The position numbers and the translations under genes are program-made. A DNA stretch of 64,000 nt from a virus. Taxonomy: Duplodnaviria > Caudoviricetes. The notes under the pieces were generated by a model. It was not told the DNA's origin. It saw only the letters and a list, made by a program, of their open reading frames with translations, and searched no databases. The DNA lies in IMG/VR virus record IMGVR_UViG_3300031760_004865, positions 1 to 64,000 of that record; one strand, given 5' to 3'. Shown piece by piece: positions 7,758 to 22,085 of this stretch. Position 1 is the stretch's first letter. Each line of letters opens with the position of its first letter.

Positions 7758-8617
7758 CTGGGGTAGATGGAATCGGACCATCCCGGCGGGAGTTTGCACA
7801 AACTCTCCCATGAATTAAATCTTTAGCCAATCTTCATCAGATATTTTTTTGATGTCATCTTTTTTGCGAGGAAGAGAATAACTATCACACCATTTCCTAA
7901 TAGCATTATCAGTTCTTCCATATAATTCTCCTATTTTTGTGAAAGGTAATTCTCTAATTAATTTTTTTAATTCTTCACGAGTTGGTTTATCCTCAGGATG
8001 AATAGATTTTTTATAACAATCCCAACATTTTATTGCTTGTGAAGTTATTGGTTTTCCACATTCGATGCATTTATTAACTTTTTCAAGCATTTTTTCTTTT
8101 CTTTTAGGAGACTCTATTGTAATATAATTATCTAATATAGATTCATCAATCATTCCTAGAATTTTATCTATTTCATAATCTTTGCCATATATAGCATTTA
8201 GATTATTACTTGAATAAGTATCAGGTTCTCCTAATCGAATAAATTTATTTTTATTAGTTTCAGTACATAATTCAATAGGAATTAAATATCCTTTATTTTC
8301 CCAATGAGTATAAAAGAAATCAATTTGACCTATATAATTATGAAATTCACTTTGATTCCAATTATGAGTTACTACAGTAAAAGAAATTCTATTATTAGTT
8401 TCTGGATGAGCAGTTTTACACTGAATCCTATATAATTTATCTTTTATTTCTGCAATAAAATCATAACGACTTGATGGATTTGTTGGCTGTGATAAAACTA
8501 TTCCCCTTTCGCAAAACTGCATCTGACACCAAAGTTCTGTTAACTGACCTAACTGATTTGAAATATTCATTTCGCGTTTCAGCAAAGTCCCGTGCCCTAC
8601 CACTAGGCTATACCCCA
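7758..8617 (-). tRNA. tRNA-Gln(UUG), interrupted at 36/37 by a 789 nt insert (7794-8582)
   Basis: 5' half tggggtatagcctagtggtagggcacgggactttg (8617-8583); 3' half actcccgccgggatggtccgattccatctaccccag (7793-7758); acceptor and anticodon stems pair fully. Confidence 0.9.
7815..8570 (-). CDS. PD-(D/E)XK homing endonuclease (I-Ssp6803I/PDDEXK_5-like) with Zn-ribbon and HTH, inside tRNA-Gln
   Basis: GQLTELWC...SSRYDFIAEIKDKLYRIQCKT...IDFFY motif; CIECGK...KCWDC; ATG 12 nt inside the insert. Confidence 0.8.
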   Translation of the reverse strand: MNISNQLGQLTELWCQMQFCERGIVLSQPTNPSSRYDFIAEIKDKLYRIQCKTAHPETNNRISFTVVTHNWNQSEFHNYIGQIDFFYTHWENKGYLIPIELCTETNKNKFIRLGEPDTYSSNNLNAIYGKDYEIDKILGMIDESILDNYITIESPKRKEKMLEKVNKCIECGKPITSQAIKCWDCYKKSIHPEDKPTREELKKLIRELPFTKIGELYGRTDNAIRKWCDSYSLPRKKDDIKKISDEDWLKI

Positions 8618-8624
8618 TTATAAC

Positions 8625-8739
8625 AAGACACTTTCAAAAATATTGATCTACCATTTGATCTACATTTGCTATTGGCGCAAAAGATGGGAATCGAACCCAC
8701 AACACTTATCTTGAAAGATAAAATTGCTGTTTGTGTCTT
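8625..8739 (-). ncRNA. Circularly permuted tRNA-like RNA A (T arm first, acceptor closed by loop, then D arm)
   Basis: gtgggttcgattcccat-cttttgc-GCCA-ata-gcaaatg-ta-gatcaaatggtagatc; ends aagacac/gtgtctt pair; ACAGCAA bulge. Confidence 0.7.
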
Positions 8740-8742
8740 AAA

Positions 8743-8821
8743 CGGCTTTGGTAGGAGTCGAACCATACACCTCCCAAAAACAACTGGGCGTACTTCCGGT
8801 TTAAACATATACTACAAAGCC
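8743..8821 (-). pseudogene. Degenerate tRNA (Asn-like)
   Basis: Perfect acceptor ggctttg/caaagcc and ttcgact T loop, but the anticodon loop is not 7 nt and the T stem has an extra base. Confidence 0.5.
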
Positions 8822-8829
8822 AAAATACT

Positions 8830-8945
8830 AAACACTATATAACTCACCGGCCGCGCTGCCGTTGCGCCACGTCCCCATGAATGGGGACGACAAGACTCGA
8901 ACTTGTAACCTGCTGGTCCCATGAGAGTAATTGCTGTTAGTGTTT
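8830..8945 (-). ncRNA. Circularly permuted tRNA-like RNA B
   Basis: acaagttcgagtcttgt-cgtcccc-a-ttcat-ggggacg-tg-gcgcaacggcagcgc-g-gccgg; ends aaacacta/tagtgttt pair; ACAGCAA bulge. Confidence 0.75.
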
Positions 8946-8948
8946 AAA

Positions 8949-9084
8949 TCGGAGTGGCGAGATTCGAACTCGCGGCCTCGTGATCATCCAGTTGGAAGTG
9001 CTGGCCTTCCTTTACACTTTATGTATAAAATAACCGTATAACTGGCCCAAATCACGCGCTCTAGCCAAACTGAGCCACACCCCG
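8949..9084 (-). tRNA. tRNA-Pro(UGG) with a 61 nt ORF-less anticodon-loop insert (8986-9046)
   Basis: cggggtgtggctcagtttggctagagcgcgtgatttgg | insert | gatcacgaggccgcgagttcgaatctcgccactccga. Confidence 0.9.
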
Positions 9085-9104
9085 ATAACAAGGGACTTCT
9101 ATTG

Positions 9105-9176
9105 TGGGAAAAATCGGAATTGAACCGATATCTTAAACTTAAAAGGTTTATGCCTGAACCATTAGGCTATTTTCTC
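9105..9176 (-). tRNA. tRNA-Lys(UUU), enclosed by an ACAGCAA-bulged stem (9090-9206)
   Basis: taaac-ct-ttt-aa-gttta anticodon arm; atcgg-ttcaatt-ccgat T arm. Confidence 0.85.
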
Positions 9177-9250
9177 TATTAGAAAGAATTTTGCTGTATG
9201 TCCCTTTATCTTATAAATATATTATATCATATTTTTTTTTGAAAATCAAG

Positions 9251-10387
9251 TTAAATCATATATTTTTGAACGAAACTTCTATCAATTTTCTTGAAGATAA
9301 TTTTCTTTGGAGCAAGTGCTTGCTTTGCTAAAGCAATAAGTTTCTTTTGCTCTTCGGCATCTTCAATATCATAATAATAATCTTCATCTATCAGTTGATC
9401 TATATTAATCAAATCAACTGGATAAGTCATCTCACCGTTCTCTGTAATGATATGAGATGGATTAATTGTAAACCAAACACTACTCGGCAAATTAGTATTT
9501 TTGCTAAAGCCCCAAGCACGAAGACACTCTTCTCTATCACTAAATACATCAAGTCTATATGCCGGAGCCTTAAATTCCATACCATTCACTGCGATATAAA
9601 CAATATCAAAATCAGTATCAGTTCTGGCGATATTCAAATCGGCAAGTGTTTCGGCAAGTGTATAACCTTGATTAAGTTCAAAAGTAATTGCTCTCAAATA
9701 ATCATAAGTCATGTATATAGAATTGGCAAGAGTTACGATATTTTCAATTTCATCCCAATATTCAGGATTCAAATTATCAATCATATATTCTCTTACTTCT
9801 TCTGCTTTTGGAGGAAGAATTTCAAAATGATAATGAAATCTACCTGGCCTATCCAAAAGGTAAGCGTTAAGTTTTCTGACTTCATTACAAGTGATAATAA
9901 AAAGTTTCTTTCCACCATCAATGCCGTCAAATAAACTCAACATTTCTTCCTGCGGTTCGTGATGGTCATCATCCTGTCTAAAAGTCTTTTCAAACTCATC
10001 AAAAAGAACAACACATTCCTGTTCGATTGAAGCAAGGAAATCATCAATGCCGGGGATATAATCACTCACTACGACTACTGGATAACCAAGTGCCCCAGCT
10101 TTTTCGGCAAGAACTCTCATAAACATTGACTTGCCAATTCCTTTTTGTCCGCTAAGAATAAGACCAAAATTACGATCTGCTAACTGAAAAGATTTCAAAA
10201 CTTTATCTACTTTTTCAGCATGATTACCGTAGACTTTCTCAGTTACTTTGAAATCATTCCTTGTTTTTAGAAAAAATCCAGTCATTTTATTGAACCCAAC
10301 TTCATAGGCTCCTACTGGAAGTTCGCTATATGTTTTGACACTATCATCATAAATCATATACATACTGCCGCTTTGAACTATATTCAT
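9251..10387 (-). CDS. AAA+ ATPase
   Basis: Walker A GQKGIGKS, Walker B VVLFDEFEK, sensor/Arg finger LLDRPGRF. Confidence 0.85.
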   Translation of the reverse strand: MNIVQSGSMYMIYDDSVKTYSELPVGAYEVGFNKMTGFFLKTRNDFKVTEKVYGNHAEKVDKVLKSFQLADRNFGLILSGQKGIGKSMFMRVLAEKAGALGYPVVVVSDYIPGIDDFLASIEQECVVLFDEFEKTFRQDDDHHEPQEEMLSLFDGIDGGKKLFIITCNEVRKLNAYLLDRPGRFHYHFEILPPKAEEVREYMIDNLNPEYWDEIENIVTLANSIYMTYDYLRAITFELNQGYTLAETLADLNIARTDTDFDIVYIAVNGMEFKAPAYRLDVFSDREECLRAWGFSKNTNLPSSVWFTINPSHIITENGEMTYPVDLINIDQLIDEDYYYDIEDAEEQKKLIALAKQALAPKKIIFKKIDRSFVQKYMI

Positions 10388-10402
10388 CTAATTTCTCCTT
10401 TC

Positions 10403-10633
10403 TTATACTTCTTGAATAGAAAGAGAATCTATTTTACTAAGTGGTATATAATATTCAATAGGTGGGAAATCATCAATTTTCATCCAAAATAAAGGAACAC
10501 CAGTCTCTTTATTCCAACCATATTCTAATGCTATATATGTAGTTGTTTTTTCACCTTGTTCTATTGATATTGAATAATACCTATAATATTTTCCCTTCTT
10601 TGTATACATTTTTCTCTCCTTCTTATTTAACAA
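10403..10633 (-). CDS. Hypothetical protein
   Basis: Short co-oriented ORF; true start probably the second Met. Confidence 0.45.
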   Translation of the reverse strand: MLNKKERKMYTKKGKYYRYYSISIEQGEKTTTYIALEYGWNKETGVPLFWMKIDDFPPIEYYIPLSKIDSLSIQEV

Positions 10634-10634
10634 A

Positions 10635-10706
10635 TGGGAATGAGAAGAATTGAACTTCTATGACCGCGTTATCAGCACGGCATACTCACCATTGTATTAC
10701 ATTCCC
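10635..10706 (-). tRNA. tRNA-Ile(GAU)
   Basis: Cloverleaf; ccgtg-ct-gat-aa-cgcgg. Confidence 0.9.
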
Positions 10707-10711
10707 AAAAA

Positions 10712-11246
10712 CACTCCGAGAGGGAATCGAACCCCCATTTCACAGTTACGTGCTATATTCTTACTTTTCTAACTCCTTTTCAAGAATTTTTTCAATTTCA
10801 TAATCAGAAGCCCAACACATAGTTTTTATAGGAGTTTTAGCTTCAAACCGTAAAGTTTTACTATCACTACATTGATTTACAGGAACTAAATAACCTTGTC
10901 CTTCCCAGCAGGTATAAAAATAATCTATTTCATCTTTTGTATAAGAAACTCTATTTGTTCTGCCGGTTTTAGCATTTCTTGTAGATTGACAAGAAAACAT
11001 TATAGCTTTTCCAACGGTATCTGCTAAATGACTTGTTTTACATTGGACTTTTATAAATTTAGTTCCTAAATCAATAACAAAATCATATCTACAAGGTCTT
11101 ATAGGTTGATTTACAATAAATCCCAATTTAGAAAAATCTATTTGACACTATAGTTCTGTAATTAGTCCTTTTGTAATCGTATCCATATTTTTTCAAAGTA
11201 AGTTATAATACGTATTCGTGTGGTTTATCCATTATCCTACCGGAGT
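10712..11246 (-). tRNA. tRNA-Arg(ACG), interrupted at 36/37 by a 463 nt insert (10748-11210)
   Basis: 5' half actccggtaggataatggataaaccacacgaatacg; 3' half aactgtgaaatgggggttcgattccctctcggagtg; D and anticodon stems slightly imperfect. Confidence 0.75.
10761..11186 (-). CDS. PD-(D/E)XK homing endonuclease inside tRNA-Arg, 141 aa under code 15
   Basis: MDTITKGLITEL[TAG]CQ aligns with KGLITELQCQ of the Thr-insert paralogue; PCRYDFVID...KVQCKT. Confidence 0.85.
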
Positions 11247-11466
11247 ATAAGGGAAATCTGCGCCAACAGATTCCCCCAGGGCCGTAATATAATTGGCGTT
11301 ATATACGGTTTTCGTGTTTATCGGGAAAACACCGACTTAATTTCATCCCCAGTGGAATGATTTTAAGCCAAACCCGCACGCGCGTACCTCTCAACTCGTA
11401 TTCTACCTCGCCTACTATGTAGGGCGTGTCCTACCCTTCGTACTAATATAGACGTTTTTGAGAGAG

Positions 11467-11539
11467 CGTTCCCGAGAGGACTCGAACCTCTAATCCCAGA
11501 CTTAGAAGGACTGTGCCTTATCCCTTAGGCTACGGGAAC
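11467..11539 (-). tRNA. tRNA-Arg(UCU)
   Basis: Cloverleaf; cagtc-ct-tct-aa-gtctg. Confidence 0.9.
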
Positions 11540-11543
11540 AGCT

Positions 11544-11936
11544 TCATATATGATATTTATGAAAATCGTATTGCCACTCTTTATTATCTTTTGGGCCATC
11601 GGCATAAAATAACTCTTCGTCATTTACTTTTTCCGAATAGACAGTAATTGTATCTTTTCCATATAAATATTCAAATTTAGAATAAGTCCGACTTTTACAA
11701 TTCATAAGCGCAGGATCGGAAAGGATTTCTTCATATAATTGCTGAGTAATCATTGATTCATGCACTTTACTATCAGTAACAATTCTGAAAAGATATTTTA
11801 CCTGAACGTTTTCTTTTTCATTAGTTGGCGGCATAATTACCATTGCCATATATAAAGTCTCAGGAACTAATTCAAATTCTACTTCTTGTAAGCTGCGATA
11901 AAAATTCTGCGGCACTTCTTTCAAATACATTAACAT
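11544..11936 (-). CDS. Hypothetical protein
   Basis: 130 aa ORF with GAGG SD. Confidence 0.55.
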   Translation of the reverse strand: MLMYLKEVPQNFYRSLQEVEFELVPETLYMAMVIMPPTNEKENVQVKYLFRIVTDSKVHESMITQQLYEEILSDPALMNCKSRTYSKFEYLYGKDTITVYSEKVNDEELFYADGPKDNKEWQYDFHKYHI

Positions 11937-11949
11937 CTCATTTTCCTCC

Positions 11950-12279
11950 TTATGCTATATATTTATATCCATAATGAGTAAGCAAGTGTTCTATATTATG
12001 TCTTCCTACTGGATTCATTGAATGGATTGAGAAAGCACCAATTTCAATGCCCTTTTCTACAATAAACTTAGCGAAATCATACCCTGTCTTCTCCTGCCCT
12101 AAGTCGTGGTCAAAACTTATATATAAGTCTTCATACCGCATATCCTCATTGAAATTAGCAAGGTAAAAGATAGCATCTTGATATGTTTTTGCTACATAGT
12201 AAGTATCAACTATTTTACAAAAATTCTTAGATGGCTTTCTCTCATCATCAAGCCATAAACCATATTTGAATTGAGCCAT
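11950..12279 (-). CDS. Cyclic-phosphate-processing receiver-like (cREC) domain protein
   Basis: LWLDDER...ISFDHDLG..KTGYDFAKFI...IHSMNPVGRHNI pattern. Confidence 0.75.
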   Translation of the reverse strand: MAQFKYGLWLDDERKPSKNFCKIVDTYYVAKTYQDAIFYLANFNEDMRYEDLYISFDHDLGQEKTGYDFAKFIVEKGIEIGAFSIHSMNPVGRHNIEHLLTHYGYKYIA

Positions 12280-12336
12280 TTTCTTTTACCCCTTTCTCAT
12301 TTACTATATATATTATAACATTTTTTTTATAAAAAA

Positions 12337-13482
12337 TCAACCAAAAACTTCTTCTTCATCTTCATTATTTTCAGTATCATTTTCTTCTTCTTCATCCTCA
12401 GTTTCTTCTTCTTCATCTGAGTATGAAATTTCTTCTCCTGCTAAAGAATCTTCTTCGTCTACCTCTTCTTCAAGATCTGATTCATCATTGATATATTCAA
12501 TGTCATCATCATCTATATTTAATTCTTCATTATCATTATTATTATAATCTTCTTCTTCTTCGTTTTCTTCTTCGGTCCAATAACGTCTCGCACCAGCAGG
12601 TGTTCTGTAATCAACGTCACTAATTCTGATTCCATTCTCAGGATTACTTGCGTGAGTTACTGTGCCGTCGCCGTTATAAATGGTAACGTGACCAATACGA
12701 CCTTCATCATTATAATAATAAAGAATATCCCCTGCTTGTATATCATCTAAATCTACTTCTTCTCCGCCTTCTGCTTGTTCGGCAGCAGTTCTTCCAATAC
12801 TAATTCCCATATCAGAAAATACTGCCTGAGTAAATCCAGAGCAGTCAGCACCATTTGTTAGAGATTCCCCTCCCCAAACATATGGATTACCTACAAATTG
12901 TTGAGCGTATTTTACAATGGAAGAACCAGTTGTATCTCCAGAAGTAGTAGTGGTATGTCTGACTGTTTCGCCAGTTTCTTCATCTTCTTCTTCGTAATAA
13001 TAAACTGTTTCATCTGCTTCTTCATCATAGTAATAATACACTTCGGGCACTTCTTCATCTTCATCATAATAATAAGATGAATCATAGTATGCTTCTTCTG
13101 GAATATCTTCTTCGTCTTCATTATAATAATAACTGTAATTATAATTATCATCATAGTCATCACTATAACTGTAATTATAAAGACTGTCATCTCCGTTATT
13201 ATAACTCTCATTTGAGTCATAAACATGATATTCAAAATCATAGGCGTTTATCCAACCATAAGAATCAAGAGTAATACAAACCTTTGCCCAATCACCTTTC
13301 TTTTCTACGACTTCAATTTCTTGTCCGCCATAGACTTTATCAAAGGTGCGAGATTCTTTATTTGGTTCTGCATGAACTTCTAATTCTTTCGGCCAGATAT
13401 ACGCCGTTACATAATCAGCATATATAGGTGTTGTAAGAGATAGTGTAAATATAAATGATATTATAGTAATTAGTTTCTTCAT
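12337..13482 (-). CDS. Secreted SH3 + NlpC/P60 cell-wall peptidase with acidic low-complexity linkers
   Basis: Signal peptide; SH3-like block; GNPYVWGG..DCSGF...GHV..Y...HAS. Confidence 0.85.
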   Translation of the reverse strand: MKKLITIISFIFTLSLTTPIYADYVTAYIWPKELEVHAEPNKESRTFDKVYGGQEIEVVEKKGDWAKVCITLDSYGWINAYDFEYHVYDSNESYNNGDDSLYNYSYSDDYDDNYNYSYYYNEDEEDIPEEAYYDSSYYYDEDEEVPEVYYYYDEEADETVYYYEEEDEETGETVRHTTTTSGDTTGSSIVKYAQQFVGNPYVWGGESLTNGADCSGFTQAVFSDMGISIGRTAAEQAEGGEEVDLDDIQAGDILYYYNDEGRIGHVTIYNGDGTVTHASNPENGIRISDVDYRTPAGARRYWTEEENEEEEDYNNNDNEELNIDDDDIEYINDESDLEEEVDEEDSLAGEEISYSDEEEETEDEEEENDTENNEDEEEVFG

Positions 13483-13534
13483 CTTAACCTCCTTGTTTAA
13501 GGGAGGGCAGGTAATTGACTAATTGACTGGGTAA

Positions 13535-13609
13535 GGTGGCCGGTGGGACTCGAACCCGCGAACTCCGGTTCCACAGACCGGCGTGTTAACCAACTACACT
13601 ACGGCCACC
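13535..13609 (-). tRNA. tRNA-His(GUG)
   Basis: ccggt-ct-gtg-ga-accgg; G-1 and C73 present. Confidence 0.92.
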
Positions 13610-13708
13610 AAAATTGAGAAAAGAAAGGGCGCTATAAAAACGCCCCATTAATGATTTAAATTATTAGTGATTTTATATATGTATCCCATATAAAATCACC
13701 GAGGGGGG

Positions 13709-14266
13709 TTAGGGCCATTCTCCTAAGGGCTTCCCCAGCTTGCCAACTTCAACATCAGTACAATAAGCGACACCGCCACCGTTTATACTTTCAAAATCTT
13801 CAAAAAGCTCTGCGGCAAGATCCTGATATAGTGTACTGATTACGCCGTGAGGGTCATTCAAATTATCATTGAAGAACTGAACTACGCAATTCTTGAATAC
13901 TACATAGGTAAGAGGGATAAACCAATAACCATCTGCGGCAGGGCAAACACTGTAAGCATAAACCGGACTCTTCTCAAACAAAGTATCAAACAGTTCCTTG
14001 GCAGAAGTGAAAGCACGATTTGAGAACGGGCCATCAACACTAATTTTAAGAGTTACATTGCCAAACTTCTTCTCTTCTGGAAGAACCTTTGTAAGAGCAG
14101 TTGCCTTGTCTCCGTTATTAGTAGAAATTACTACTGAAGGGCCATCACCTTTTGTATTAAAATCTACATTAAGGGCAATCTGTGGGTCAGCATCAAAAAG
14201 TGCTGTAAGTTTATTCACATAAGTTACCCAAGGTGAGGAAATTTTAAGTCTTACTTCATTACTCAT
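13709..14266 (-). CDS. Hypothetical protein
   Basis: 185 aa ORF with AAGGAG SD. Confidence 0.6.
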   Translation of the reverse strand: MSNEVRLKISSPWVTYVNKLTALFDADPQIALNVDFNTKGDGPSVVISTNNGDKATALTKVLPEEKKFGNVTLKISVDGPFSNRAFTSAKELFDTLFEKSPVYAYSVCPAADGYWFIPLTYVVFKNCVVQFFNDNLNDPHGVISTLYQDLAAELFEDFESINGGGVAYCTDVEVGKLGKPLGEWP

Positions 14267-14316
14267 TTTTTTTGTTTCTCCTTTAACTCTTTTTTATTTT
14301 CCTTTTGGAAGAAACG

Positions 14317-14399
14317 CGGAGAAAGGGACTCGAACCCTTGCGACGCTAATGCGCCCTAAGAGATTAGCAATCTCTCCTCTTCACCACTTGAGTATCTCC
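14317..14399 (-). tRNA. tRNA-Ser(GCU)
   Basis: agaga-tt-gct-aa-tctct, long variable arm, G73. Confidence 0.92.
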
Positions 14400-14644
14400 G
14401 CTTATAAAAAAACCACAGACAAGAAAACCAACTTTGAGGAATGATGTAAGTCTCAAGCCTAGAGGGTAAAGAAATCTGTGGGAATATTCTTATCATTACT
14501 AAGAAAAATTATGATATGAAAAAAGGATGCCAACCCAGAGCCTGCCCTGGCGTTATAAAAAGGGAAGGAAACAAAACAAACAAAAGAAAGAGAGATGAGG
14601 GCAGGATTTCCTTCGTTGGGTCTTTATCTCATTATCATAAGAAA

Positions 14645-14989: not shown

Positions 14990-14993
14990 ATTT

Positions 14994-15224: not shown

Positions 15225-15251
15225 TTTGTCCTCCTCTCTTAATTTTCAATC

Positions 15252-15321: not shown

Positions 15322-15324
15322 AAG

Positions 15325-15849
15325 TGGGCCGTGATGGAGTTGCACCACCCGAGTCCGAAGACAGCAGATTTAATCTTGATCCGAGATTTGAACTCGGTAT
15401 TGATATGTTTGAAATCCTTGATTATTTTTTTGTTGGTTCAAAACGAAGTGAAATTTGTTTTTTATTTCCTGCTAAAAGTAAATCTTTCACAGGAATATTC
15501 CACATATTATATTCATTATCAACACAAAATAAATAATCAAGCTCAGGATGATTAAGAATAGAATCATAAACTTCACCTTTAGTTCCACCAGTAGAAACTA
15601 AATAAATTTCTTTATCTTTTGTTGCTGTTGCTTTACACTGGACGGTGTAAAACTTACTATCTTTCTCAATCACCAAATCATACCACTGAGTGTCATTCAT
15701 CGGGATGGATATTGTATAACCTTTAACTGTAAAATAGTTAATTGCCATACTCAGTCCTAACCTTCCCAATGTTTTACGGTTAATTTCTGTCATATCAAAT
15801 CTCCTATTCAAGCCAGTCTGCCCCGCTACTACTTACGGAATAACAACCC
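15325..15849 (-). tRNA. tRNA-Tyr(GUA), interrupted at 34/35 by a 441 nt insert (15373-15813)
   Basis: 5' half gggttgttattccgtaagtagtagcggggcagactg; 3' half taaatctgctgtcttcggactcgggtggtgcaactccatcacggccca; Tyr-type variable arm. Confidence 0.85.
15422..15793 (-). CDS. PD-(D/E)XK homing endonuclease inside tRNA-Tyr
   Basis: AGGAG SD; GRLGLSMAI...PMNDTQWYDLVIE...TVQCKAT. Confidence 0.8.
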   Translation of the reverse strand: MTEINRKTLGRLGLSMAINYFTVKGYTISIPMNDTQWYDLVIEKDSKFYTVQCKATATKDKEIYLVSTGGTKGEVYDSILNHPELDYLFCVDNEYNMWNIPVKDLLLAGNKKQISLRFEPTKK

Positions 15850-16052
15850 GTGTGGGTGGATTGGACTCTACCGTCCTAGGGCTACCACCAGTCACCCAGG
15901 CTTTTCCTCGCAAGCAAAAACCCCAAACGCAAAACCTAATCAACGCGCTTACAATTAGACTCGACCTTGGCCTTCGGTCTCCTGTTCTTTCACCATCAAG
16001 AACAGTGAAGCCGTTTGATATTGCTTGGTAGCTAATCAAGCGAATATCTAAC

Positions 16053-16126
16053 TGACGGGGCGAGGATTCGAACCTCGGAATGCTGGGATATGAACCCAGT
16101 GTCTTAGACCACTTGACGACCCCGCT
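16053..16126 (-). tRNA. Initiator tRNA-fMet(CAU)
   Basis: ctggg-tt-cat-at-cccag with three G-C pairs; 1-72 mismatch. Confidence 0.88.
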
Positions 16127-16133
16127 ATGAGTG

Positions 16134-16484
16134 TCAGATATACTCAAATTTATCATACATCTGACGATATTCTTTAACATGATTATGAGTTACAGTTCCA
16201 ATAAGAGCTTCTTTATCGTGTTCTTCTTTGATATAAATACGAGCTGTATCACTCGTTATTGCTTGCCTACCTTTCGGGCGCGTTAATAATTTAGCACAAT
16301 TTTCAATTCGTTTTGAATCAGTAGTGTTTAATTCCATTCTTCCACCCGCGGCAACTACTACAAAAATAGGTTTGCCATTTTCAAACACAGGTTTTGTTTT
16401 AGAAATATTACCAAACCATTTCACCGAATATTCTTCATATACATCAGAAACAATCAAATGAGTTTTTAGCATTACTTCTGACAT
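16134..16484 (-). CDS. Hypothetical protein
   Basis: 116 aa ORF coupled to the upstream ORF. Confidence 0.55.
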   Translation of the reverse strand: MSEVMLKTHLIVSDVYEEYSVKWFGNISKTKPVFENGKPIFVVVAAGGRMELNTTDSKRIENCAKLLTRPKGRQAITSDTARIYIKEEHDKEALIGTVTHNHVKEYRQMYDKFEYI

Positions 16485-16681
16485 TTTATTTTATCCTCTT
16501 CAATCAAAGATGAAAAGAAATCAAGTATTTCATCATTCATTTCTCTGGTGATTTTTGTTTCGCCCTGCGGCACATGCTTTGTCATATGATTAGGATTGTG
16601 TTCTTTCCAACAGGATAAAGAATGTTTAGCAATTTTCTCAGGATCTTCAAAACTTCTGTTACAAGTAGGACAAATATACAT
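16472..16681 (-). CDS. Small C2H2-type zinc finger protein
   Basis: YICPTCNRSF...IAKH..SC; GAAAGG SD; promoter directly upstream. Confidence 0.6.
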   Translation of the reverse strand: MYICPTCNRSFEDPEKIAKHSLSCWKEHNPNHMTKHVPQGETKITREMNDEILDFFSSLIEEDKIKCQK

Positions 16682-17057
16682 ATCATTTTTCCTTTCATTT
16701 GATATATATATTATATCAAAATTTTTTATAAAAATCAAATTACCGGTCTTTCACCGGTGGTTTTTAGTAGTTCCCTTCTACAATCAAACAGGTTTTACTT
16801 CTCTGTTCCGAAGTTAGAAAGAGAGGGTTTCTGTCGGGAGTGCAGTTTCAATCACTCGCATCCTTGATGGGTTCAACGACTCGTAACTGGGGTAGCTTAC
16901 GCGGATTTGTATAGTCGTTTGGCACTAGGACTTTCACCTTGTTAAGTTACGTTCTCAATACTATACTTACCGCCGCCCACTGTGGTGTCTCCCCACTGCT
17001 TCCCATCGTACAGGCTTTATTTTCTTCTCCGGCTTTTAATGCTTGCCTACCGACAAA

Positions 17058-17180
17058 TTATGCGGGTAAGGATTTGCACCTTACATGATTGAAATTTCTC
17101 GCCTTACTTAGCTTATTGCAAATCACATAAGTAAGGAATCATCTTACGCAATATACGTCTACCTATTCCGCCACCGCATA
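17058..17180 (-). ncRNA. tRNA-Leu-like RNA with degenerate anticodon arm and about 50 nt branched variable region
   Basis: tatgcgg/ccgcata acceptor, Leu-type D loop gcggaataggtagacg, gtaagg-tgcaaat-ccttac; inner hairpin ccttactta/taagtaagg. Confidence 0.6.
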
Positions 17181-17250
17181 CAGTCTTACCGATTCGAACG
17201 GCTCCTATCCTTTTCAGGGGATCGCTGCTATCCTCTACACCACAACTATA
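17180..17250 (-). pseudogene. Degenerate tRNA (Phe-like GAA)
   Basis: ccg-ttcgaat-cgg T arm; anticodon loop not 7 nt; weak acceptor. Confidence 0.4.
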
Positions 17251-17252
17251 AA

Positions 17253-17325
17253 TAGCCCGTGCGAGAATCGAACTCGCGTCTCCGGCTTGAAGGGCCAGTG
17301 TCACTTACCGCTAGACTAACGGGCC
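17253..17325 (-). tRNA. tRNA-Glu(UUC)
   Basis: ctggc-cc-ttc-aa-gccgg. Confidence 0.9.
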
Positions 17326-17446
17326 AAATATGCCAGTTTAAAACTGGCAGATCTTTTTGATGTCTAAAATAAGGAAAAAAGATCTAAAACCTCATAGTCC
17401 ATCACTTTATTTTACCCAGGAGGATTGGACGGCCTCCTGTATATAG

Positions 17447-17527
17447 CGCTCGCGGTTGGACTTGCACCAACTTCCTCATAGCAGTATCCTCAATTAAGGC
17501 GCCCTCTTATTTGGACTTACTATGAGC
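17447..17527 (-). pseudogene. tRNA-like element, isotype undetermined
   Basis: gctcata/cgcgagc acceptor-like stem and gttgg-tgcaagt-ccaac T arm; no canonical anticodon loop. Confidence 0.4.
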
Positions 17528-17640
17528 GGGTTACTCATACTCCGCACACGGCATATATAATGCCGATTTTGTTTTGGGAGATTCGGCAAACTCCTCATCT
17601 ATATTAGCCCAATGGACTGTACCTCACTTTCGTAAGATTT

Positions 17641-17775
17641 TTACTGATTCATATTGTAAGATTCAACAGTTACAGTTCCAAACCGCTCTTTGATGAACTC
17701 AACATCCTTATAGGATCTCACAAAGGTCATATGGCGTCTCTTGTCATCATCTACGTAATAAACAACATACATCAT
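17641..17775 (-). CDS. Small hypothetical protein (44 aa)
   Basis: AAGGAG SD, promoter upstream, MMYVVYYVDDDKRRHMTFV... Confidence 0.5.
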   Translation of the reverse strand: MMYVVYYVDDDKRRHMTFVRSYKDVEFIKERFGTVTVESYNMNQ

Positions 17776-17874
17776 AGGCTTTTCTCCTTTTCTTTATGAG
17801 TTCTTTATTTATCTTACATATATATTATATCAAAAATTTTTATAAAAATCAAATCAAAGAACTTTTTAGTTCAG

Positions 17875-17948
17875 TACTTCTGGTAGGATTCGAACCTACA
17901 ATTTTCTGGGTTTGAGCCAGTTGCGTCTGCCGGTTGCGCCACAGAAGC
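17875..17948 (-). tRNA. tRNA-Leu(CAA), short variable loop
   Basis: actgg-ct-caa-ac-ccaga. Confidence 0.85.
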
Positions 17949-17952
17949 ATAA

Positions 17953-18025
17953 TGGTGATTATAGGACTTGAACCTATGGCCCCCTGCTTGTAAGGCAGAT
18001 ACTCTCCCAGCTGAGCTAAACCACC
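17953..18025 (-). tRNA. tRNA-Val(UAC)
   Basis: Canonical cloverleaf. Confidence 0.93.
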
Positions 18026-18034
18026 AGAAGAAAA

Positions 18035-18107
18035 TGGAGTCGGAGGGACTCGAACCCTCTACCTCTTCCTTGCAAGGGAAGCGCTCTCCCAGGTGAGCTA
18101 CGACCCC
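18035..18107 (-). tRNA. tRNA-Ala(UGC)
   Basis: Canonical cloverleaf with G3-U70. Confidence 0.93.
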
Positions 18108-18322
18108 AAAAATAAGGAACCAATGCAGGCATCAGCCCCTCGGAAAACCTTGCGGTTTTTGATCCAAAATGCCCGATATTGCGAACTTGGCTCGGGCAGG
18201 CCGACTCATTTAATTTCTCCTCTTCCTTTTGGAAGGGATCTGTCGCTGTGACGTAACAGCGAATCCCCTGGCTCATACGTCCTAACGGGCGGGTCCACCC
18301 AAATAAAAGCATTACTGCTTCA

Positions 18323-18394
18323 CGGGACGGCAGGGATTCGAACCCCGATAGTCAGGTTAACAGCCTGAAGTCCTCACCGTTGGACGACCGCCCC
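18323..18394 (-). tRNA. tRNA-Asn(GUU)
   Basis: tcagg-ct-gtt-aa-cctga. Confidence 0.92.
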
Positions 18395-18448
18395 AGATCT
18401 GGTAAGTTGAGTTTAACGTCCCAGGCACTTACCAAGCCACTGGACCAA

Positions 18449-18521
18449 TGACTCCTGCCAGATTCGAACTGACGACTCCAGCTTGAGGGACTGGTGACTT
18501 CAACCACTTGTCGAAGGAGCC
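18449..18521 (-). tRNA. tRNA-Glu(CUC)
   Basis: ccagt-cc-ctc-aa-gctgg. Confidence 0.88.
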
Positions 18522-18994
18522 TTTTTATTTCTCAAATTTATAATATTTTTACTTCCTGTTGTAGGTAGCTATTGATTACAATTAGGACAAACCCATCTAA
18601 GATTTTCTAATCTATCATCATTATTTATTCCATTTATATGATCCAAAATCAAAGTTAATGGTTTATCATTCCATATAGGGAGCTATCCACAAATAGAACA
18701 TTTATAAGGAACATATTCTCCATTTATAAAATATTTTCTGAGAGTTTTTTGATGAGCTGTTGAGCCTTTAATAAAAATATTTTCTGGAGTTCTCTAAACT
18801 TTATCTTCTGATTTTTTAGATAAAACAAAATGATCTGTAGATAATTGTAATTTTTCAATACGCTCTTTTATTTTTGAATAAGTAGAGCTACTCTTTGTAA
18901 GATACCCACATTTTTTTAGAACATCGGCATAAGAAAGACTTTTCTAAACGAACTAAGAAAATTCTTCATCTGAAAACTAATCAACTTTAGCCAT
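18500..18994 (-). CDS. HNH endonuclease, 164 aa under code 15 (6 in-frame TAG)
   Basis: CSICG[Q]...LILDHINGINNDDRLENLRWVCPNCNQ[Q]LPT; absent from the ORF track. Confidence 0.85.
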
Positions 18995-19416
18995 TTTTTT
19001 TCCTTTCTTTATCTTATATATATATTATATCAAAATTTTTTTAAAAAATCAAATTAAGTGCTTTTGGCAGGGGCAGTTGCGTTTCCGGTATTTACACTCA
19101 TAACAAACAGTATCTAAACAGCTGTTTTTAGACTTATAAGTTATTTAGCAGGCTTCTACTGCGCCCCCCAGAAACACTTAATTTGATTTTTATATCAGGG
19201 GGCTTTATACTGCCCCCACGGTATCAAGTTCCTTTCTGTTCTCATCAGTGAGGAAAAACTGAAAGCTATCTCTTACATTCTGTCTCCGAAATTCAACTTC
19301 GGTCATATCATAATATTCTTCGCAAGTTTCATAAAGGTCAAAATCATCAAACATAATTTTTTCTCCTTTCTTAACTTTCTATAAATATTATAACATATTT
19401 TTTTTAAAAAATCAAG

Positions 19417-19686
19417 TTAGTCAATTAGTGAATCGGCAATCCATCCGCCCGTATCCAACAGACGCCAATTATAGCCATCTCTTAGAACAGTGCTTACTTC
19501 TGTGCCGTAGTCGTTTTCAAAAGTATAAACGGGGTCACCATTATATACTTTATAAGCAACGTCAAAACCAAATCCGGGGCCGTATCTTACATTAGCGTAA
19601 TTTACAGTCTCATTATAAACATACCGCTTTTTTCCGCCCCATACATTTTCAAGGGCTTCATCACTCAACTTATAGACCTGCTCCAT
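19417..19686 (-). CDS. Double-glycine leader + SH3b-like small protein
   Basis: MEQVYKLSDEALENVWGG then ANVRYGPGFGFDV...GWI. Confidence 0.65.
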   Translation of the reverse strand: MEQVYKLSDEALENVWGGKKRYVYNETVNYANVRYGPGFGFDVAYKVYNGDPVYTFENDYGTEVSTVLRDGYNWRLLDTGGWIADSLID

Positions 19687-19836
19687 ATTTTTATCTCCTT
19701 TTTCTCTTTTGGAAAAAACAGAAAAGTTACTTTCCGCGAGGTCGGTTACATTTTATACCGTTTTACTACATCTAACATAGTTAGGACTTATTGTTTCCTA
19801 CCCTCTCGCTAGGCTTCCATTCGCTTTTCTGTTGAG

Positions 19837-19909
19837 CGATCCCGACGGGTGCTGCCCCCGCTATCCCGTGCGTGACAGGCACGTGACTCTGCTGACCGTC
19901 CCCAGGACC
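19837..19909 (-). tRNA. tRNA-Asp(GUC) with atypical D arm and T loop GGCAGCA
   Basis: cgtgc-ct-gtc-ac-gcacg; G73. Confidence 0.8.
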
Positions 19910-20162
19910 AAAACCAGTTTCCCTCGTAAGGCGGCACTGGAAAACCGACTGTACAGTTTGAATTCTTTCAGTAATAACCCGCCTAAAGAACTCACAAAGT
20001 TTGGGGATAGTATTAGTCTTGTCGGTTCCTTGTTGAACTCGGGTGGCTTAACTATCATCGTCATTCCAAAGTCAGAGGAGCAGTTTTAGGTCGCACTCCA
20101 CATCAGACCTTATTTACGAGGAGCGTTGCTTCTCCCCGCCTATCTCCAAAAGATAGGATAAA

Positions 20163-20237
20163 TACGCCGCCTGGGACTCGAACCCAGCATCTTAGGTTTA
20201 TAAGACCTCTGCATAAAACCAACTATGCTAGCGGCGC
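20163..20237 (-). tRNA. tRNA-Ile(UAU)
   Basis: gaggt-ct-tat-aa-accta; canonical T arm. Confidence 0.88.
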
Positions 20238-20440
20238 TCACTCCTTTTTCTCTTTCTTATACTCTTGGAATTTTAAGCAACCCTCAATCCATTCTTCATC
20301 CGTCGGGTCGCACCTTTGAGAACCACACATTTGGCAATTCTCTTTTATAAAATCATAATTTTCTATCATATAATTCTCCTAAAATAAAAATTGCTTACTA
20401 TTACACTTAATGGCGGCGTCGAAGCAAGACCGAACCAGAA

Positions 20441-20513
20441 TGCGCCATGCGGGATTCGAACCCACGACTCCGAAATTAAAAGTTTCGTACTCTGCCAACT
20501 GAGTTAATGGCGC
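20441..20513 (-). tRNA. tRNA-Lys(UUU), second copy
   Basis: cgaaa-ct-ttt-aa-tttcg. Confidence 0.92.
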
Positions 20514-20728
20514 TAATTTTTCTGAGATTTTTCACTCGACATAAAATCAACTCCTTTTATAAATATTATAACAAAAATTTTTTAAAAAATCAAGACCATA
20601 ACGGGGTTTTTAGTTTTTATAGGAGTTACAAAATTCTCCCGCTCATTAAATCTACTCCGTTGAGGTTTAGTCAATCCTTAACTAATCATCTTGTATGTAA
20701 ATTGCTGAAATGGTCTTTAAAGCGGCTG

Positions 20729-21226
20729 TTATTCACAGCCAATAATTTTTTCAATTCGATAAGTAATACCAAGGCCGACAATCATTACCAGAGCATCTAC
20801 TCCAAAAGCAACAAGATTTTTTACAATTTTGACTGCAAATGGAATATGATATAAATAACACTCAATGCCTGTTTTGGCTCCCAGCATACCAATTCCGACA
20901 AACAAAACGATTGCCGCAATTCGTGCCCAAACATTTCTAGTACGTTTGAATACTAATCCGCATCCAAAACCTATAATCAAATTTGCTACAAACCAACTAA
21001 TACTAAAACCATACGGAGAAAATAGAATACTTTCAAGTCCGCAACCAACGGCTCCTACAAAAGCACCCCATACTCCAAATAAGCTACAAGCTAATGTCAA
21101 AGCAACATATCCCAAATCGAGCGAAATTGCTCCAATAAACGGGATTTTCATCATAGCACTTAATACACAATAAAGTGCTGTTAATAAAGCGATACATGTA
21201 ATTTTCTTTGTTGTCAGTTTACTCAT
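20729..21226 (-). CDS. ECF transporter S-component-like membrane protein
   Basis: Start MSKLTTKKITCIALLTALYCVL (GGAGG SD); several hydrophobic segments; FG...GAFVGAVG pattern. Confidence 0.75.
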   Translation of the reverse strand: MSKLTTKKITCIALLTALYCVLSAMMKIPFIGAISLDLGYVALTLACSLFGVWGAFVGAVGCGLESILFSPYGFSISWFVANLIIGFGCGLVFKRTRNVWARIAAIVLFVGIGMLGAKTGIECYLYHIPFAVKIVKNLVAFGVDALVMIVGLGITYRIEKIIGCE

Positions 21227-21354
21227 TTTTTTACCTCCAATGATATTTTTGAGTAAACCAAAAACACCATGAAGGGTATTTTTGGTTGACAGTTTAACGA
21301 CATAATTTGCGAAAATACAAACACTTGGTCGTGCTTTAAGGACAGCAAAACGAG

Positions 21355-22085
21355 AGCCGCCAGAGGGACTTGAACCCCCAACCCATTGATTTGATTCCTG
21401 GCTTAAACAAATCTCCTTTCCCAAATATATCCATAAGCAGTTTTTCTTTCGCCTTTTAATACTTGGCATATATGACTATTGTCACCATTAACTGCTTGAG
21501 CGGCTTCTTTAGCCGTTTCATAATCTGCTATTAGATTATGTTCTTTATCATATTGGAAGATTTTCATTTTTACTTTTGGTTCAGGTAAATTATTTATCAA
21601 TCTATGTAAAGTTTGTTCTATCTCATAGTTTTCAATAAAGTAAGTATCTGCTTTATTAACTTTTTTTGTTTCAAAAGATAAAAGTCTTGATACTCCTTGA
21701 CAATCATCAACTTTTATAAGATAACATTTATTATTCCAAAAAGTAGCAAAATAATCAATATCATTTACATCATATCTTTTAGTTTGAATACTATGAGAAG
21801 TATTTCCACCTTGAACTGAACGAGTAGCAAATTCTATTCCAGATTCAGTTTTATTTAGATGACAAGTTTTTACTTGAACTCTTATCAATTTTCCCTCTAC
21901 ATCAACTATCATATCATAACGGCAATCTTCACCTAAAGGAATAGATACATTATAACCAAGTTGAGTAAAAGTAGTTTGACATTGTAATTCTGTTATTAAG
22001 CCTTTTTGTTTATTTTCATTCATTTCTTTATAATTGTTACTCACCAAGAAACAAATCAATTGCGCTGCCATTGCGCTATGGCGGC
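21355..22085 (-). tRNA. tRNA-Thr(UGU), interrupted at 36/37 by a 659 nt insert (21392-22050)
   Basis: 5' half gccgccatagcgcaatggcagcgcaattgatttgt; 3' half aatcaatgggttgggggttcaagtccctctggcggct. Confidence 0.9.
21403..22023 (-). CDS. PD-(D/E)XK homing endonuclease with C-terminal NUMOD1-like domain, inside tRNA-Thr
   Basis: KGLITELQCQ...PLGEDCRYDMIVDVEGKLIRVQVKT; C-terminal QYD...Y.TAKEAA...SHICQVLKGERKTAYGYIW. Confidence 0.88.
   Translation of the reverse strand: MNENKQKGLITELQCQTTFTQLGYNVSIPLGEDCRYDMIVDVEGKLIRVQVKTCHLNKTESGIEFATRSVQGGNTSHSIQTKRYDVNDIDYFATFWNNKCYLIKVDDCQGVSRLLSFETKKVNKADTYFIENYEIEQTLHRLINNLPEPKVKMKIFQYDKEHNLIADYETAKEAAQAVNGDNSHICQVLKGERKTAYGYIWERRFV

Follow-up and report, generated by a model that had tools for sequence, protein, structure and literature searches.

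Two designs of endonuclease-bearing insert splitting four phage tRNA genes at the anticodon loop, and their possible removal by proteins

The DNA analysed belongs to a cattle-gut phage contig of 82,163 nt, for which CheckV estimated a completeness of only about 45%. The window, that is, the whole stretch under study, covers 64,000 nt. Four phage tRNA genes are each interrupted in the anticodon loop by an insert that bears an endonuclease gene (Table 1). The first-pass annotation had reported four such endonucleases, and this core observation was confirmed: tRNA-Gln(UUG), tRNA-Arg(ACG), tRNA-Tyr(GUA), and tRNA-Thr(UGU) each enclose one intact ORF of the PDDEXK_5 (I-Ssp6803I) family. The loci had been placed correctly, with exact coordinates slightly off; the two insert designs described below had not been told apart, and the absence of a ribozyme had not been stated.

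Table 1. Split tRNA genes, their inserts, and associated features in the window
Feature	Coordinates	Strand	Remarks
tRNA-Gln(UUG) exon 1, positions 1-36	8583..8617	-	halves together fold into tRNA-Gln(ttg)
Class 1 insert in tRNA-Gln	7794..8582	-	789 nt, at 36/37; terminal CAA pairs with UUG
ORF A, PDDEXK_5 endonuclease	7815..8570	-	PF11645 E 5e-13; C-terminal CxxC..CxxC extension
tRNA-Gln exon 2, positions 37-73	7758..7793	-	
tRNA-Arg(ACG) exon 1	11211..11246	-	
Class 1 insert in tRNA-Arg	10748..11210	-	463 nt, at 36/37; terminal CGT pairs with ACG
ORF B, PDDEXK_5 endonuclease	10761..11186	-	PF11645 E 2e-12, and 2.8e-15 with the TAG included; one in-frame TAG
tRNA-Arg(ACG) exon 2	10712..10747	-	
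Stand-alone cREC domain protein inside tRNA array	11950..12279	-	PF20274 E 2e-21
tRNA-Tyr(GUA) exon 1, last base G34	15814..15849	-	collinear, once joined, with intact tRNA-Tyr genes
Class 2 insert in tRNA-Tyr	15373..15813	-	441 nt, at 34/35
Tyr insert, acceptor-like 5' strand	15807-15813	-	
ORF C, PDDEXK_5 endonuclease	15422..15793	-	PF11645 E 1e-12; 123 aa
Tyr insert, T-arm mimic	15381-15397	-	
Tyr insert, acceptor-like 3' strand	15374-15380	-	
Tyr insert, discriminator	15373	-	
tRNA-Tyr exon 2, from U35	15325..15372	-	long variable arm
tRNA-Thr(UGU) exon 1	22051..22085	-	
Class 1 insert in tRNA-Thr	21392..22050	-	659 nt, at 36/37; terminal TCA
ORF D, PDDEXK_5 endonuclease	21403..22023	-	PF11645 E 3e-22; NUMOD-like C-terminal domain, PF22083 E 9e-6
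tRNA-Thr exon 2	21355..21391	-	

All four ORFs matched PF11645 above the Pfam cut-off of 26.1 bits (47.8-79.7 bits; 49-80 bits in a six-frame search), in support of the earlier label "I-Ssp6803I-like". An alignment of the four showed that the shared core noticed in the first pass is real, with invariant G, G, P, YD, Q.K, and D.F. A D or E stands five positions past YD in every ORF, and core residues align with those of I-Ssp6803I (PDB 2OST), which was the sole match of ORF D among solved structures (E 1e-6). As for the appended domains that had been proposed, the NUMOD-like matches of ORF D fell just below the Pfam cut-offs (25.6 bits vs 27, and 18.7 vs 22.8), and the zinc ribbon of ORF A is visible as CxxC...CxxC with a weak profile match (E 0.05), beside a putative HTH. 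The TAG of ORF B (11148-11150) was read as Q; it aligns with a Q of ORF D, and TAG is used as a sense codon in + strand genes of the phage. ORF C is preceded by a GGAG ribosome-binding site directly past the acceptor-like strand of its insert. Judged by their sequences, all four ORFs encode homing endonucleases of the I-Ssp6803I family.

When the halves were joined, ARAGORN returned a canonical cloverleaf in three cases, Gln(ttg), Arg(acg), and Thr(tgt), with two stem mismatches in that of Arg (A12xA23 and A31xC39). It made no call for the joined tRNA-Tyr, whose halves are collinear with intact phage tRNA-Tyr(gta) genes. The claim that no intact Gln, Arg(ACG), Tyr, Thr, or Pro gene exists elsewhere was borne out by ARAGORN on the 82,163-nt contig, at its completeness of about 45%, and by Rfam on the window. 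The complete genome of a relative (G003) has Pro, Val, and Tyr solely as split genes, with no duplicates.

The four endonucleases share only 23-38% pairwise identity. In the endonuclease tree, three of the four group with endonucleases from the same tRNA type in other phages, and tRNA labels change 22 times as against 47 in shuffles (a value reached in 0 of 200). Since the tree follows tRNA identity, it points to four separate invasions. Inserts are patchily present among relatives, and one insert is 99.8% identical between two tRNA-Pro alleles that are themselves only 92% identical (L099 vs L100). The repeated homing invasion proposed at the outset is supported by these lines of evidence and by the existence of insert-less alleles: the cultured Enterococcus phage EFP01 has a clean 463-nt insertion at 36/37 of tRNA-Asn, present in 1 of 31 relatives, and 29 Schiekvirus-like relatives have an intact, insert-less tRNA-Asn. 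Joining the EFP01 exons at 36/37 gave 73/73 identity with the insert-less phage iF6, an indirect argument that such endonucleases cut the insert-less tRNA gene at the anticodon. Presence and absence between identical flanks was thus seen in relatives and not on the window phage itself; no close relative of the window was found. Among viral loci with a PDDEXK_5 relative, a tRNA spans the ORF in 45 of 70, and the free-standing genes are mixed with inserted forms on the tree, indicating that the two life styles interconvert. Collectively, these data show that four phage tRNA genes were each invaded in the anticodon loop by a separate mobile insert.

A possibility was that the tools had missed group I introns of the ordinary self-splicing kind, or bulge-helix-bulge introns of the archaeal type. 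I-Ssp6803I itself resides in a group I intron of tRNA-fMet, and related phages have a group I intron in tRNA-Leu. However, about 200 nt is required for a group I core, and the non-coding flanks of the ORFs measure 11-49 nt per side (Gln 12 + 21 nt, Arg 24 + 13, Tyr 20 + 49, Thr 27 + 11), a total of 33-69 nt per insert. No Rfam match to group I (RF00028) or to small ribozymes was obtained at E<=1 in 6000-24000, whereas RF00028 did find the tRNA-Leu intron of a related contig (L108; 24.5 bits, E 3e-4). None of the four inserts has a ribozyme. Nor do the junctions form a bulge-helix-bulge: the class 1 helix runs through them without 3-nt bulges, with pairs 33:37 through +1:-4 kept in 39-41 of 41 alleles, and the junctions lie at 36/37 or 34/35, not at 37/38. 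No tRNA_int_endo domain (PF01974) turned up in five phage records, in a search that did find four archaeal controls. A missed intron of either kind is therefore very improbable.

The inserts at 36/37 (class 1, in tRNA-Gln, tRNA-Arg, and tRNA-Thr) end in a triplet that pairs, wholly or in part, with the anticodon of the same tRNA. Among 41 distinct alleles, which span 12 anticodons, the final triplet pairs fully with the anticodon in 38; counted as anticodon/triplet combinations, 13 of 15 do. Full pairing dropped to 8.4% when triplets were swapped between anticodons and to 0-2 of 41 when the triplet was slid by 1-3 nt. The TCA of the tRNA-Thr insert leaves one of the three anticodon bases unpaired, and there the stem of first and last insert bases is strong (7/7 pairs). 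Pairs 33:37, 34:-1, and +1:-4 were kept in 41/41 alleles, 35:-2 in 40, and 36:-3 in 39. G·U pairs occur in Asn, Asp, Pro, and some Thr, which fits RNA rather than DNA. In the predicted precursor the anticodon is paired, a point that bears on the speculative first-pass suggestion that splitting might hide anticodon loops from host nucleases: the anticodon stem would be lengthened into one long helix, with U33 paired to A37, the last three insert bases to the anticodon, insert base +1 to base -4 with more pairs beyond, and the ORF in the loop. The helix would be pseudo-symmetric, 17 bp long, and centred on the middle anticodon base, and the two junctions would lie inside it three base pairs apart, such that cuts would leave 3' overhangs. 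Removal would need a duplex-specific, probably dimeric, endonuclease, then a ligase. No bacterial RNase is known to cut duplex RNA with a 3-nt 3' stagger.

The insert in tRNA-Tyr, at 34/35, is of another design (class 2). It alone among the four has tRNA-like ends: an acceptor-like 7-mer comes first, and a T-arm, the complementary 7-mer, and a single discriminator base, directly before exon 2, come last. Pairing is 5/7 in the acceptor mimic and 5/5 in the T-stem, with the loop TTCAAAT. The same geometry, with compensatory changes in the acceptor mimic, is seen in other Tyr inserts (L172-L175 and G003), and the six Tyr alleles measure 437-441 nt with identical boundaries. An ORF-less insert of 61 nt in the neighbouring tRNA-Pro also belongs to this class. 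Where the tRNA genes of the phage encode CCA, Tyr inserts and tRNA-shaped ones without an ORF terminate in N-CCA (6/6 cases); in CCA-less phages, the window included, they lack it. In such a precursor, RNase P should cleave exactly at the 5' end of the insert, leaving exon 1 with a 3'-OH, and the tRNA 3'-end enzyme (RNase Z or an equivalent) exactly at its 3' end, leaving exon 2 with a 5'-phosphate. The product would be a tRNA nicked in the anticodon loop, sealable by an Rnl-type RNA ligase.

From these ends we infer that the inserts are spliced, the exons then being joined by an RNA ligase of a kind so far known only for tRNA repair. A spliced tRNA joint was not seen in the RNA runs searched. 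Contigs from one bovine metatranscriptome that are identical to the window cross the Arg (11023-11220) and Tyr (15801-16027) 5' junctions unspliced, although these may be DNA carry-over. The proposal that the split genes are the working copies is plausible, in view of the sole copies and the conserved RNA structure at the insert ends. Candidate genes for sealing and healing were found in relatives: an Rnl1 and a Pnkp-like gene in one (G001), an RNA ligase match just above the Pfam cut-off in a second (G003), and a weaker one below it in a third (G002). No RNA ligase or RtcB was found on the 82 kb of the window phage, and no PF09414 or PF09511 ligase in the complete genome of EFP01. The cREC domain is a predicted processor of 2',3'-cyclic phosphate RNA ends linked to RNA ligases (PMC7824862), and the cREC protein in the tRNA array may be accessory to insert processing.

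The best explanation, to which we give somewhat better than even odds, is that these homing inserts are introns removed by proteins in two ways. The main competitor, distinctly less probable but to be taken seriously, is that selfish endonuclease genes knocked out the tRNAs: the inserts would never be removed, host tRNAs would substitute, and the RNA structures would serve the endonuclease message, either by releasing it from the tRNA operon via RNase P, RNase Z, or RNase III, or by protecting its ends or timing its translation. The unspliced RNA contigs, the mismatched stems of tRNA-Arg, and the absence of a ligase family in EFP01, alone among 31 relatives with the insert, would all fit. So would recent mobility; as the tRNA-Pro insert moved very recently and that of EFP01 sits in only 1 of 31 relatives, intact exons need not mean selection. 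Moreover, close endonuclease relatives are free-standing beside intact tRNA genes, which indicates that these endonucleases need no intron to persist. Yet a message-only role leaves unexplained why the triplet tracks the anticodon of each tRNA across 12 anticodons, why the invariably kept pairs flank the junctions, and why the class 2 mimic has its ends exactly at the points that give back a 7-nt loop on removal of the insert. It must also accommodate a complete genome, G003, in which the split genes are the only copies, and a heavy load if the split loci, about two thirds of those sampled, were all knock-outs.

Supposing removal by proteins, the enzyme for class 1 might be the intron's own endonuclease, cutting the precursor helix beside the anticodon triplet as an RNA copy of the duplex form of its DNA target, with a ligase sealing the exons. 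We consider this unlikely, despite several attractive coincidences. In the work of Bonocora and Shub from 2001, I-Ssp6803I is said to cut each DNA strand beside the anticodon triplet, leaving 3-nt 3' ends; the class 1 junctions likewise flank the paired triplet on opposite strands, with 3-nt 3' overhangs. The target of the I-Ssp6803I family is given as 17 bp, matching positions 27-43 of the anticodon arm, and its fold superfamily includes tRNA splicing endonucleases (PMC3424549). This endonuclease is also the sole protein that always travels with the inserts. However, no PDDEXK_5 enzyme is known as an RNA cutter, and the upper half of the helix is unlike the DNA half-site in sequence. Class 2 inserts carry the same enzyme family yet resemble substrates of RNase P and RNase Z, and tRNA-shaped inserts without an ORF exist, so that host enzymes seem sufficient for class 2.

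The closest known systems each share part of this picture. The group I intron in tRNA-fMet of Synechocystis PCC 6803 (655 nt, with a 150-aa ORF; PMC1995217) has the same endonuclease family (I-Ssp6803I, PDB 2OST, PF11645), targets the pseudo-palindromic tRNA anticodon arm, and is likewise a mobile element of the anticodon loop. Its ORF lies inside a self-splicing ribozyme, whereas the phage ORFs fill inserts that lack one and end in an anticodon-pairing helix or a tRNA-end mimic. In the literature on comparable inserts we found only the "enigmatic" tRNA introns, of unknown mechanism, of Lak megaphages (Devoto et al. 2019, PMC6784885), which are likewise stop-codon-recoded gut phages. Those introns include tRNA-Tyr(GTA) and tRNA-Thr(TGT), and one is itself tRNA-like (PMC6784885); the likeness is one of description, and that paper reports no endonuclease gene, anticodon-pairing helix, or processing model. 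Free-standing homing endonuclease genes of the same protein family occupy the same neighbourhood in phage tRNA regions, for example gp105 of Vibrio phage River4 between tRNA-Asp and tRNA-Pro; at other viral loci the gene precedes an intact tRNA-Pro, Ile, Ser, or Ala by 8-48 nt, or an intact tRNA-Tyr by about 50-60 nt. Unlike the inserts, these are intergenic and break nothing. Archaeal bulge-helix-bulge introns, some of which carry homing endonuclease genes, resemble the proposed route in protein removal, anticodon-intron pairing, and ligase-joined exons, and resemble class 1 in having cut sites on opposite strands of a pseudo-symmetric structure. The phage inserts differ in lacking bulges, in the 3-bp spacing, in their positions, and in their bacterial hosts, and no EndA gene was found in the five phage records. 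Phage T4 Pnkp and Rnl1, which reseal tRNA-Lys cut in the anticodon loop, provide the sealing step that the model needs; this gene pair is present in G001 and a cREC end-processing domain in the window. T4 repair is known as a defence countermeasure, not as splicing, and the window has no ligase gene that we could find.

Thus, either proteins excise the inserts and rejoin the tRNAs, or selfish genes switch phage tRNAs off. We see about an even chance that bacterial viruses possess protein-dependent tRNA splicing in two forms, one by tRNA-end mimicry and one by a 17-bp helix cut 3 bp apart, possibly by the homing endonuclease of the intron itself, with joining by an RNA ligase. If true, excision and rejoining by proteins would be a route as yet undescribed for bacteria or bacterial viruses.

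The four minus-strand ORFs that the first-pass annotation had assigned to the I-Ssp6803I family gave Pfam PDDEXK_5 matches well above the cut-off, and the assignment stands. They were 23-38% identical to one another and retained the catalytic YD, the nearby acidic residue and the Q.K motif. The sole PDB match of ORF D, which lies within tRNA-Thr, was the I-Ssp6803I structure 2OST; used alone as a query, this ORF returned mostly NUMOD domains. As had also been proposed, each ORF was flanked by the two halves of one tRNA. Junctions were set by eye before exon joining, and the joined exons folded into canonical tRNA-Gln(UUG), tRNA-Arg(ACG) and tRNA-Thr(UGU). The joined Tyr exons received no ARAGORN call; their sequence ran collinear with that of uninterrupted phage tRNA-Tyr(GUA) genes, and joining restored the loop CUGUAAA. 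The inserts measured 789 (Gln), 463 (Arg), 441 (Tyr) and 659 nt (Thr), with 12 + 21, 24 + 13, 20 + 49 and 27 + 11 non-coding nt, respectively, flanking the ORF. Intact copies of the split isotypes, which had been reported missing from the window, were absent from the whole IMG/VR virus contig of 82,163 nt, of which the window forms the first 64 kb and which CheckV rated 45% complete.

An alignment comprising four of the endonucleases then served as query against viral contigs and yielded 70 loci, nearly all on contigs of 20-200 kb. ARAGORN called a tRNA spanning the ORF at 45/70, with introns of about 440-505 or 770-780 nt, and missed a few further loci that were also split. About a dozen endonuclease genes stood on their own, 8-48 nt ahead of an uninterrupted tRNA, and gp105 of Vibrio phage River4 was likewise a free-standing endonuclease gene. 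In the cultured Enterococcus phage EFP01, tRNA-Asn was split, and among 31 related Enterococcus phages the insert occurred in EFP01 only. The annotated tRNA-Asn of its relative iF6 matched the joined EFP01 exons at 73/73 positions; the 463 nt of the EFP01 insert thus entered cleanly at 36/37 and left no duplication. For the genes of the window themselves, no insert-less alleles were found, since both a megablast of positions 7500-22300 against GenBank phages and an exact search of IMG/VR with Thr exon 1 returned no match.

On a tree of the 70 endonucleases, the tRNA label changed 22 times, against a mean of 47 after shuffling (0/200 shuffles as low). In the window, the Arg enzyme formed a pair with a second Arg(ACG) enzyme, and the Gln enzyme lay nearest to Gln enzymes, a placement that was weakly supported (SH-aLRT 52). 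The Tyr enzyme fell in a fully supported clade that also held free-standing genes beside intact tRNA-Tyr, and the Thr enzyme paired with a free-standing gene. These placements indicated that the four endonucleases are separate arrivals and not copies of one another, in agreement with the repeated invasion suggested earlier. In two contigs, the tRNA-Pro inserts were 99.8% identical and the exons 92% identical, with exon differences reaching the junction. Because inserts moved recently, as the tRNA-Pro insert did between alleles, exon conservation was dropped as proof of function, and exon intactness was lost as an argument for splicing.

The inserts fell into two designs. Class 1, to which the Gln, Arg and Thr inserts belong, could be delimited in 41 distinct alleles, and its position was 36/37 in all of them. 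The last insert triplet complemented the anticodon (anticodon/triplet: Gln TTG/CAA, Arg ACG/CGT, Val TAC/GTA, Glu TTC/GAA, Lys TTT/AAA, Ser GCT/AGC, Ile TAT/ATA, Thr TGT/ACA or ATA, Asn GTT/AGC, Asp GTC/GGC, Pro TGG/CTG or CTA); two combinations, one being the Thr type of the window (TCA), paired at 2/3 positions only. Pairing was complete in 38/41 alleles, compared with 8.4% when triplets were exchanged between anticodons and 0-2/41 when the triplet was slid. Counting insert bases from the first (+) or the last (-), pairs 33:37, 34:-1 and +1:-4 were kept in all 41 alleles, 35:-2 in 40 and 36:-3 in 39; further out, pairs at +3 to +5 were kept in 35-38 alleles and those at +8 and +9 in 7-9. From these frequencies, one long helix is predicted in the class 1 precursor. 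Its parts would be the anticodon stem of 5 bp, a centre of seven positions whose outer two (32:38 and +2:-5) would often be unpaired, and about five more pairs. The helix would be roughly symmetric around the middle anticodon base, with the ORF in its loop, and the two junctions would lie on opposite strands, three pairs apart, both within the always-paired core. The abundance of G·U pairs speaks for selection acting on RNA and not on a DNA repeat. A target-site duplication was rejected, as the triplet at the insert end constitutes an inverted complement and not a direct repeat; a DNA-level palindrome was also rejected, G·T pairs being mismatches in DNA.

The Tyr insert, which interrupts its gene at G34/U35, represents class 2. 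Its first element is a 7-mer; a ribosome-binding site (GGAG) and the ORF come next, and its end is made up of a 5-bp stem with a TTCAAAT loop, the 7-mer's complement and a single final base. Five other Tyr alleles of 437-441 nt (L172-L175 and the complete genome G003) had identical boundaries and very different 7-mers that still paired. RNase P and the enzymes that process tRNA 3' ends recognise such end geometry. After RNase P cleavage the leader carries a 3'-OH, and after RNase Z cleavage the trailer carries a 5'-phosphate. Acting on a class 2 precursor, the two enzymes would release two tRNA halves, which would be directly ligatable because of these very ends. Inserts of 61-135 nt that lack an ORF and have class 2 ends interrupt other tRNAs, among them the tRNA-Pro of the window. 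For five that we located in relatives (see table), the interrupted tRNAs were those for Lys, Gly, Ile and Glu, and the position was 35/36 or 36/37; each of these inserts had a 7/7 acceptor-like stem and an N-CCA end and came from a phage whose tRNA genes encode CCA. All six tRNA-shaped inserts from phages with CCA-encoding tRNA genes ended in N-CCA, and those of the window and of other CCA-less phages ended at the discriminator. As CCA is present or absent in both together, insert ends copy the 3' ends of the phage's own tRNAs.

An E-value scan with all Rfam families found no group I intron or small ribozyme in positions 6000-24000. As a positive control, the same group I model detected the tRNA-Leu(UAA) intron of the related locus L108 at 24.5 bits over the full model length; this score would be listed in the larger search too, so the negative result carries weight. 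Among the group I introns in tRNA-Leu(UAA) of related phages, one lacked an ORF and was 336 nt long, and two others measured about 735 nt; self-splicing introns and ribozyme-less tRNA inserts therefore share one genome. A gene for an archaeal-type splicing endonuclease was found in none of five phage records.

Which enzyme might cut class 1 precursors was considered next. RNase III leaves 2-nt overhangs and has its centre between base pairs; it was rejected, the helix being centred on a base pair and the junctions being staggered by 3 nt. Cuts at the class 1 junctions would give 3-nt 3' overhangs flanking the paired triplet. I-Ssp6803I, as reportedly described by Bonocora and Shub in 2001, cuts DNA leaving 3-nt 3' overhangs around the triplet. 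The family's target is 17 bp (PMC3424549), the same length as the anticodon arm. Overhang likeness and target length make it attractive to suppose that the insert's own endonuclease cuts the RNA, but the case is weak and we deem it improbable.

As to the fate of the inserts, we lean slightly towards removal by protein-dependent splicing. Covariation at both class 1 junctions and tRNA-end mimicry by class 2 inserts point in this direction, as do the presence of Pro, Val and Tyr only as split genes in the complete relative G003, the RNA ligases of relatives and a cREC domain gene within the tRNA array of the window. This domain, which is linked to phage RNA ligases, is predicted to open or process RNA ends bearing a 2',3'-cyclic phosphate (PMC7824862). 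G001-G003 and EFP01 yielded no cREC ORF, and the small ORFs beside that of the window had no PHROGs, Pfam or Atlas match. That inserts plainly knock out tRNA genes seems to us rather unlikely, yet several observations speak against splicing: RNA ligase families are absent from the 82-kb contig, as are PF09414 and PF09511 ligases from EFP01, the inserts moved recently, and unspliced contigs from bovine metatranscriptomes, where cover is thin, cross two junctions. RtcB was absent from G000-G003. The RNA data came from three bovine metatranscriptomes, alongside one DNA run, as assembled contigs, which rarely hold tRNAs; at the thin phage cover of these metatranscriptomes (depth 0-5), none of the four inserts showed a spliced junction. 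A loose end at 8583 was rejected as a spliced product, as it reads like another organism's uninterrupted tRNA-Gln. Whether splicing takes place is directly testable, because cultured EFP01 carries an insert that its close relative iF6 lacks.

DNA of this phage was present in bovine gut samples. Plus-strand genes beyond 50 kb (positions 50000-64000) contained 2-9 in-frame TAGs each, and long ORFs were about twice as long when TAG was read as sense, indicating that the phage is TAG-recoded. ORF B, within tRNA-Arg, has a single TAG at 11148-11150, aligned with a Q of ORF D, and TAG is probably decoded as Gln. No tRNA with anticodon CUA was found on the 82,163-nt contig; the relatives G002 and G003 have one. 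The tRNA array, encoded on the minus strand, spans positions of about 22,100 down to 7,700, and 15 kb of the window bring together both insert designs, four endonuclease lineages, an ORF-less mini insert and a cyclic-phosphate processing gene. Further features are given in the table.

Features of the tRNA array in the window and in loci of related phages (L numbers)
Feature	Location	Strand	Observation
RNA-covered stretch	7400-7744		RNA contig depth 36-69 in three bovine metatranscriptomes vs 0-5 across most of the array; just downstream of tRNA-Gln exon 2; sequencing adapter directly follows 7744 in one run; no Rfam or Pfam match
Permuted tRNA-like RNA	8617-8730	-	T-arm + acceptor strand half precedes 5' half; weak YrlA (Y RNA-like) match, 36 bits (gathering score 69)
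Permuted tRNA-like RNA	8828-8944	-	same order; weak YrlA match, 29 bits
tRNA-Pro(UGG)	8949-9084	-	joined exons fold as tRNA-Pro
ORF-less insert of tRNA-Pro	8986-9046	-	61 nt at 36/37; ends: 6/7 acceptor-like stem, 5-bp hairpin, then one discriminator base
Structured stretch	11248-11465	-	about 200 nt, higher G+C, visibly structured; just upstream of Arg exon 1; no Rfam match
cREC domain ORF	11950-12279	-	stand-alone, PF20274, E 2e-21; mid tRNA array
tRNA-Phe(GAA)	14645-14717	-	odd T-loop; Rfam 41 bits, missed by ARAGORN
Structured stretch	15850-16051	-	as 11248-11465; just upstream of Tyr exon 1
S component, ECF-type riboflavin transporter	20729-21229	-	PF07155, E 1e-15; right after tRNA-Thr exon 2
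ORF-less tRNA-shaped insert	L106:995-1130		
ORF-less tRNA-shaped insert	L087:347-491		
ORF-less tRNA-shaped insert	L170:8013-8160		
ORF-less tRNA-shaped insert	L129:2079-2227		
ORF-less tRNA-shaped insert	L171:10230-10441		
Group I intron, tRNA-Leu(UAA)	L108:480-805		
Group I intron, tRNA-Leu(UAA)	L169:1543-2366		
Group I intron, tRNA-Leu(UAA)	L171:9117-9935		
RAGATH-33 RNA	L169:1417-1529		G003 tRNA array; 139 bits
ROOL RNA	L169:3430-4023		G003 tRNA array; 323 bits

To our knowledge, all bacterial and phage tRNA introns described so far are self-splicing, and protein-spliced tRNA introns are regarded as an archaeal and eukaryotic trait. Group I introns of bacterial tRNA genes have been catalogued, and "enigmatic" tRNA introns, one of them tRNA-like, were described in Lak phages (PMC6784885). 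The literature searched contained no report of ribozyme-less endonuclease inserts. If the inserts are spliced, enzyme-dependent splicing would have been invented by phages at least twice, with a new role for RNase P, RNase Z and phage RNA ligases, and two puzzles would be explained: the RNA ligases that large phages carry, long without an explanation, and the Lak-phage introns termed "enigmatic". If they are not, homing endonucleases would disable phage tRNA genes at large scale, which would bear on the reason why phages keep tRNA arrays.
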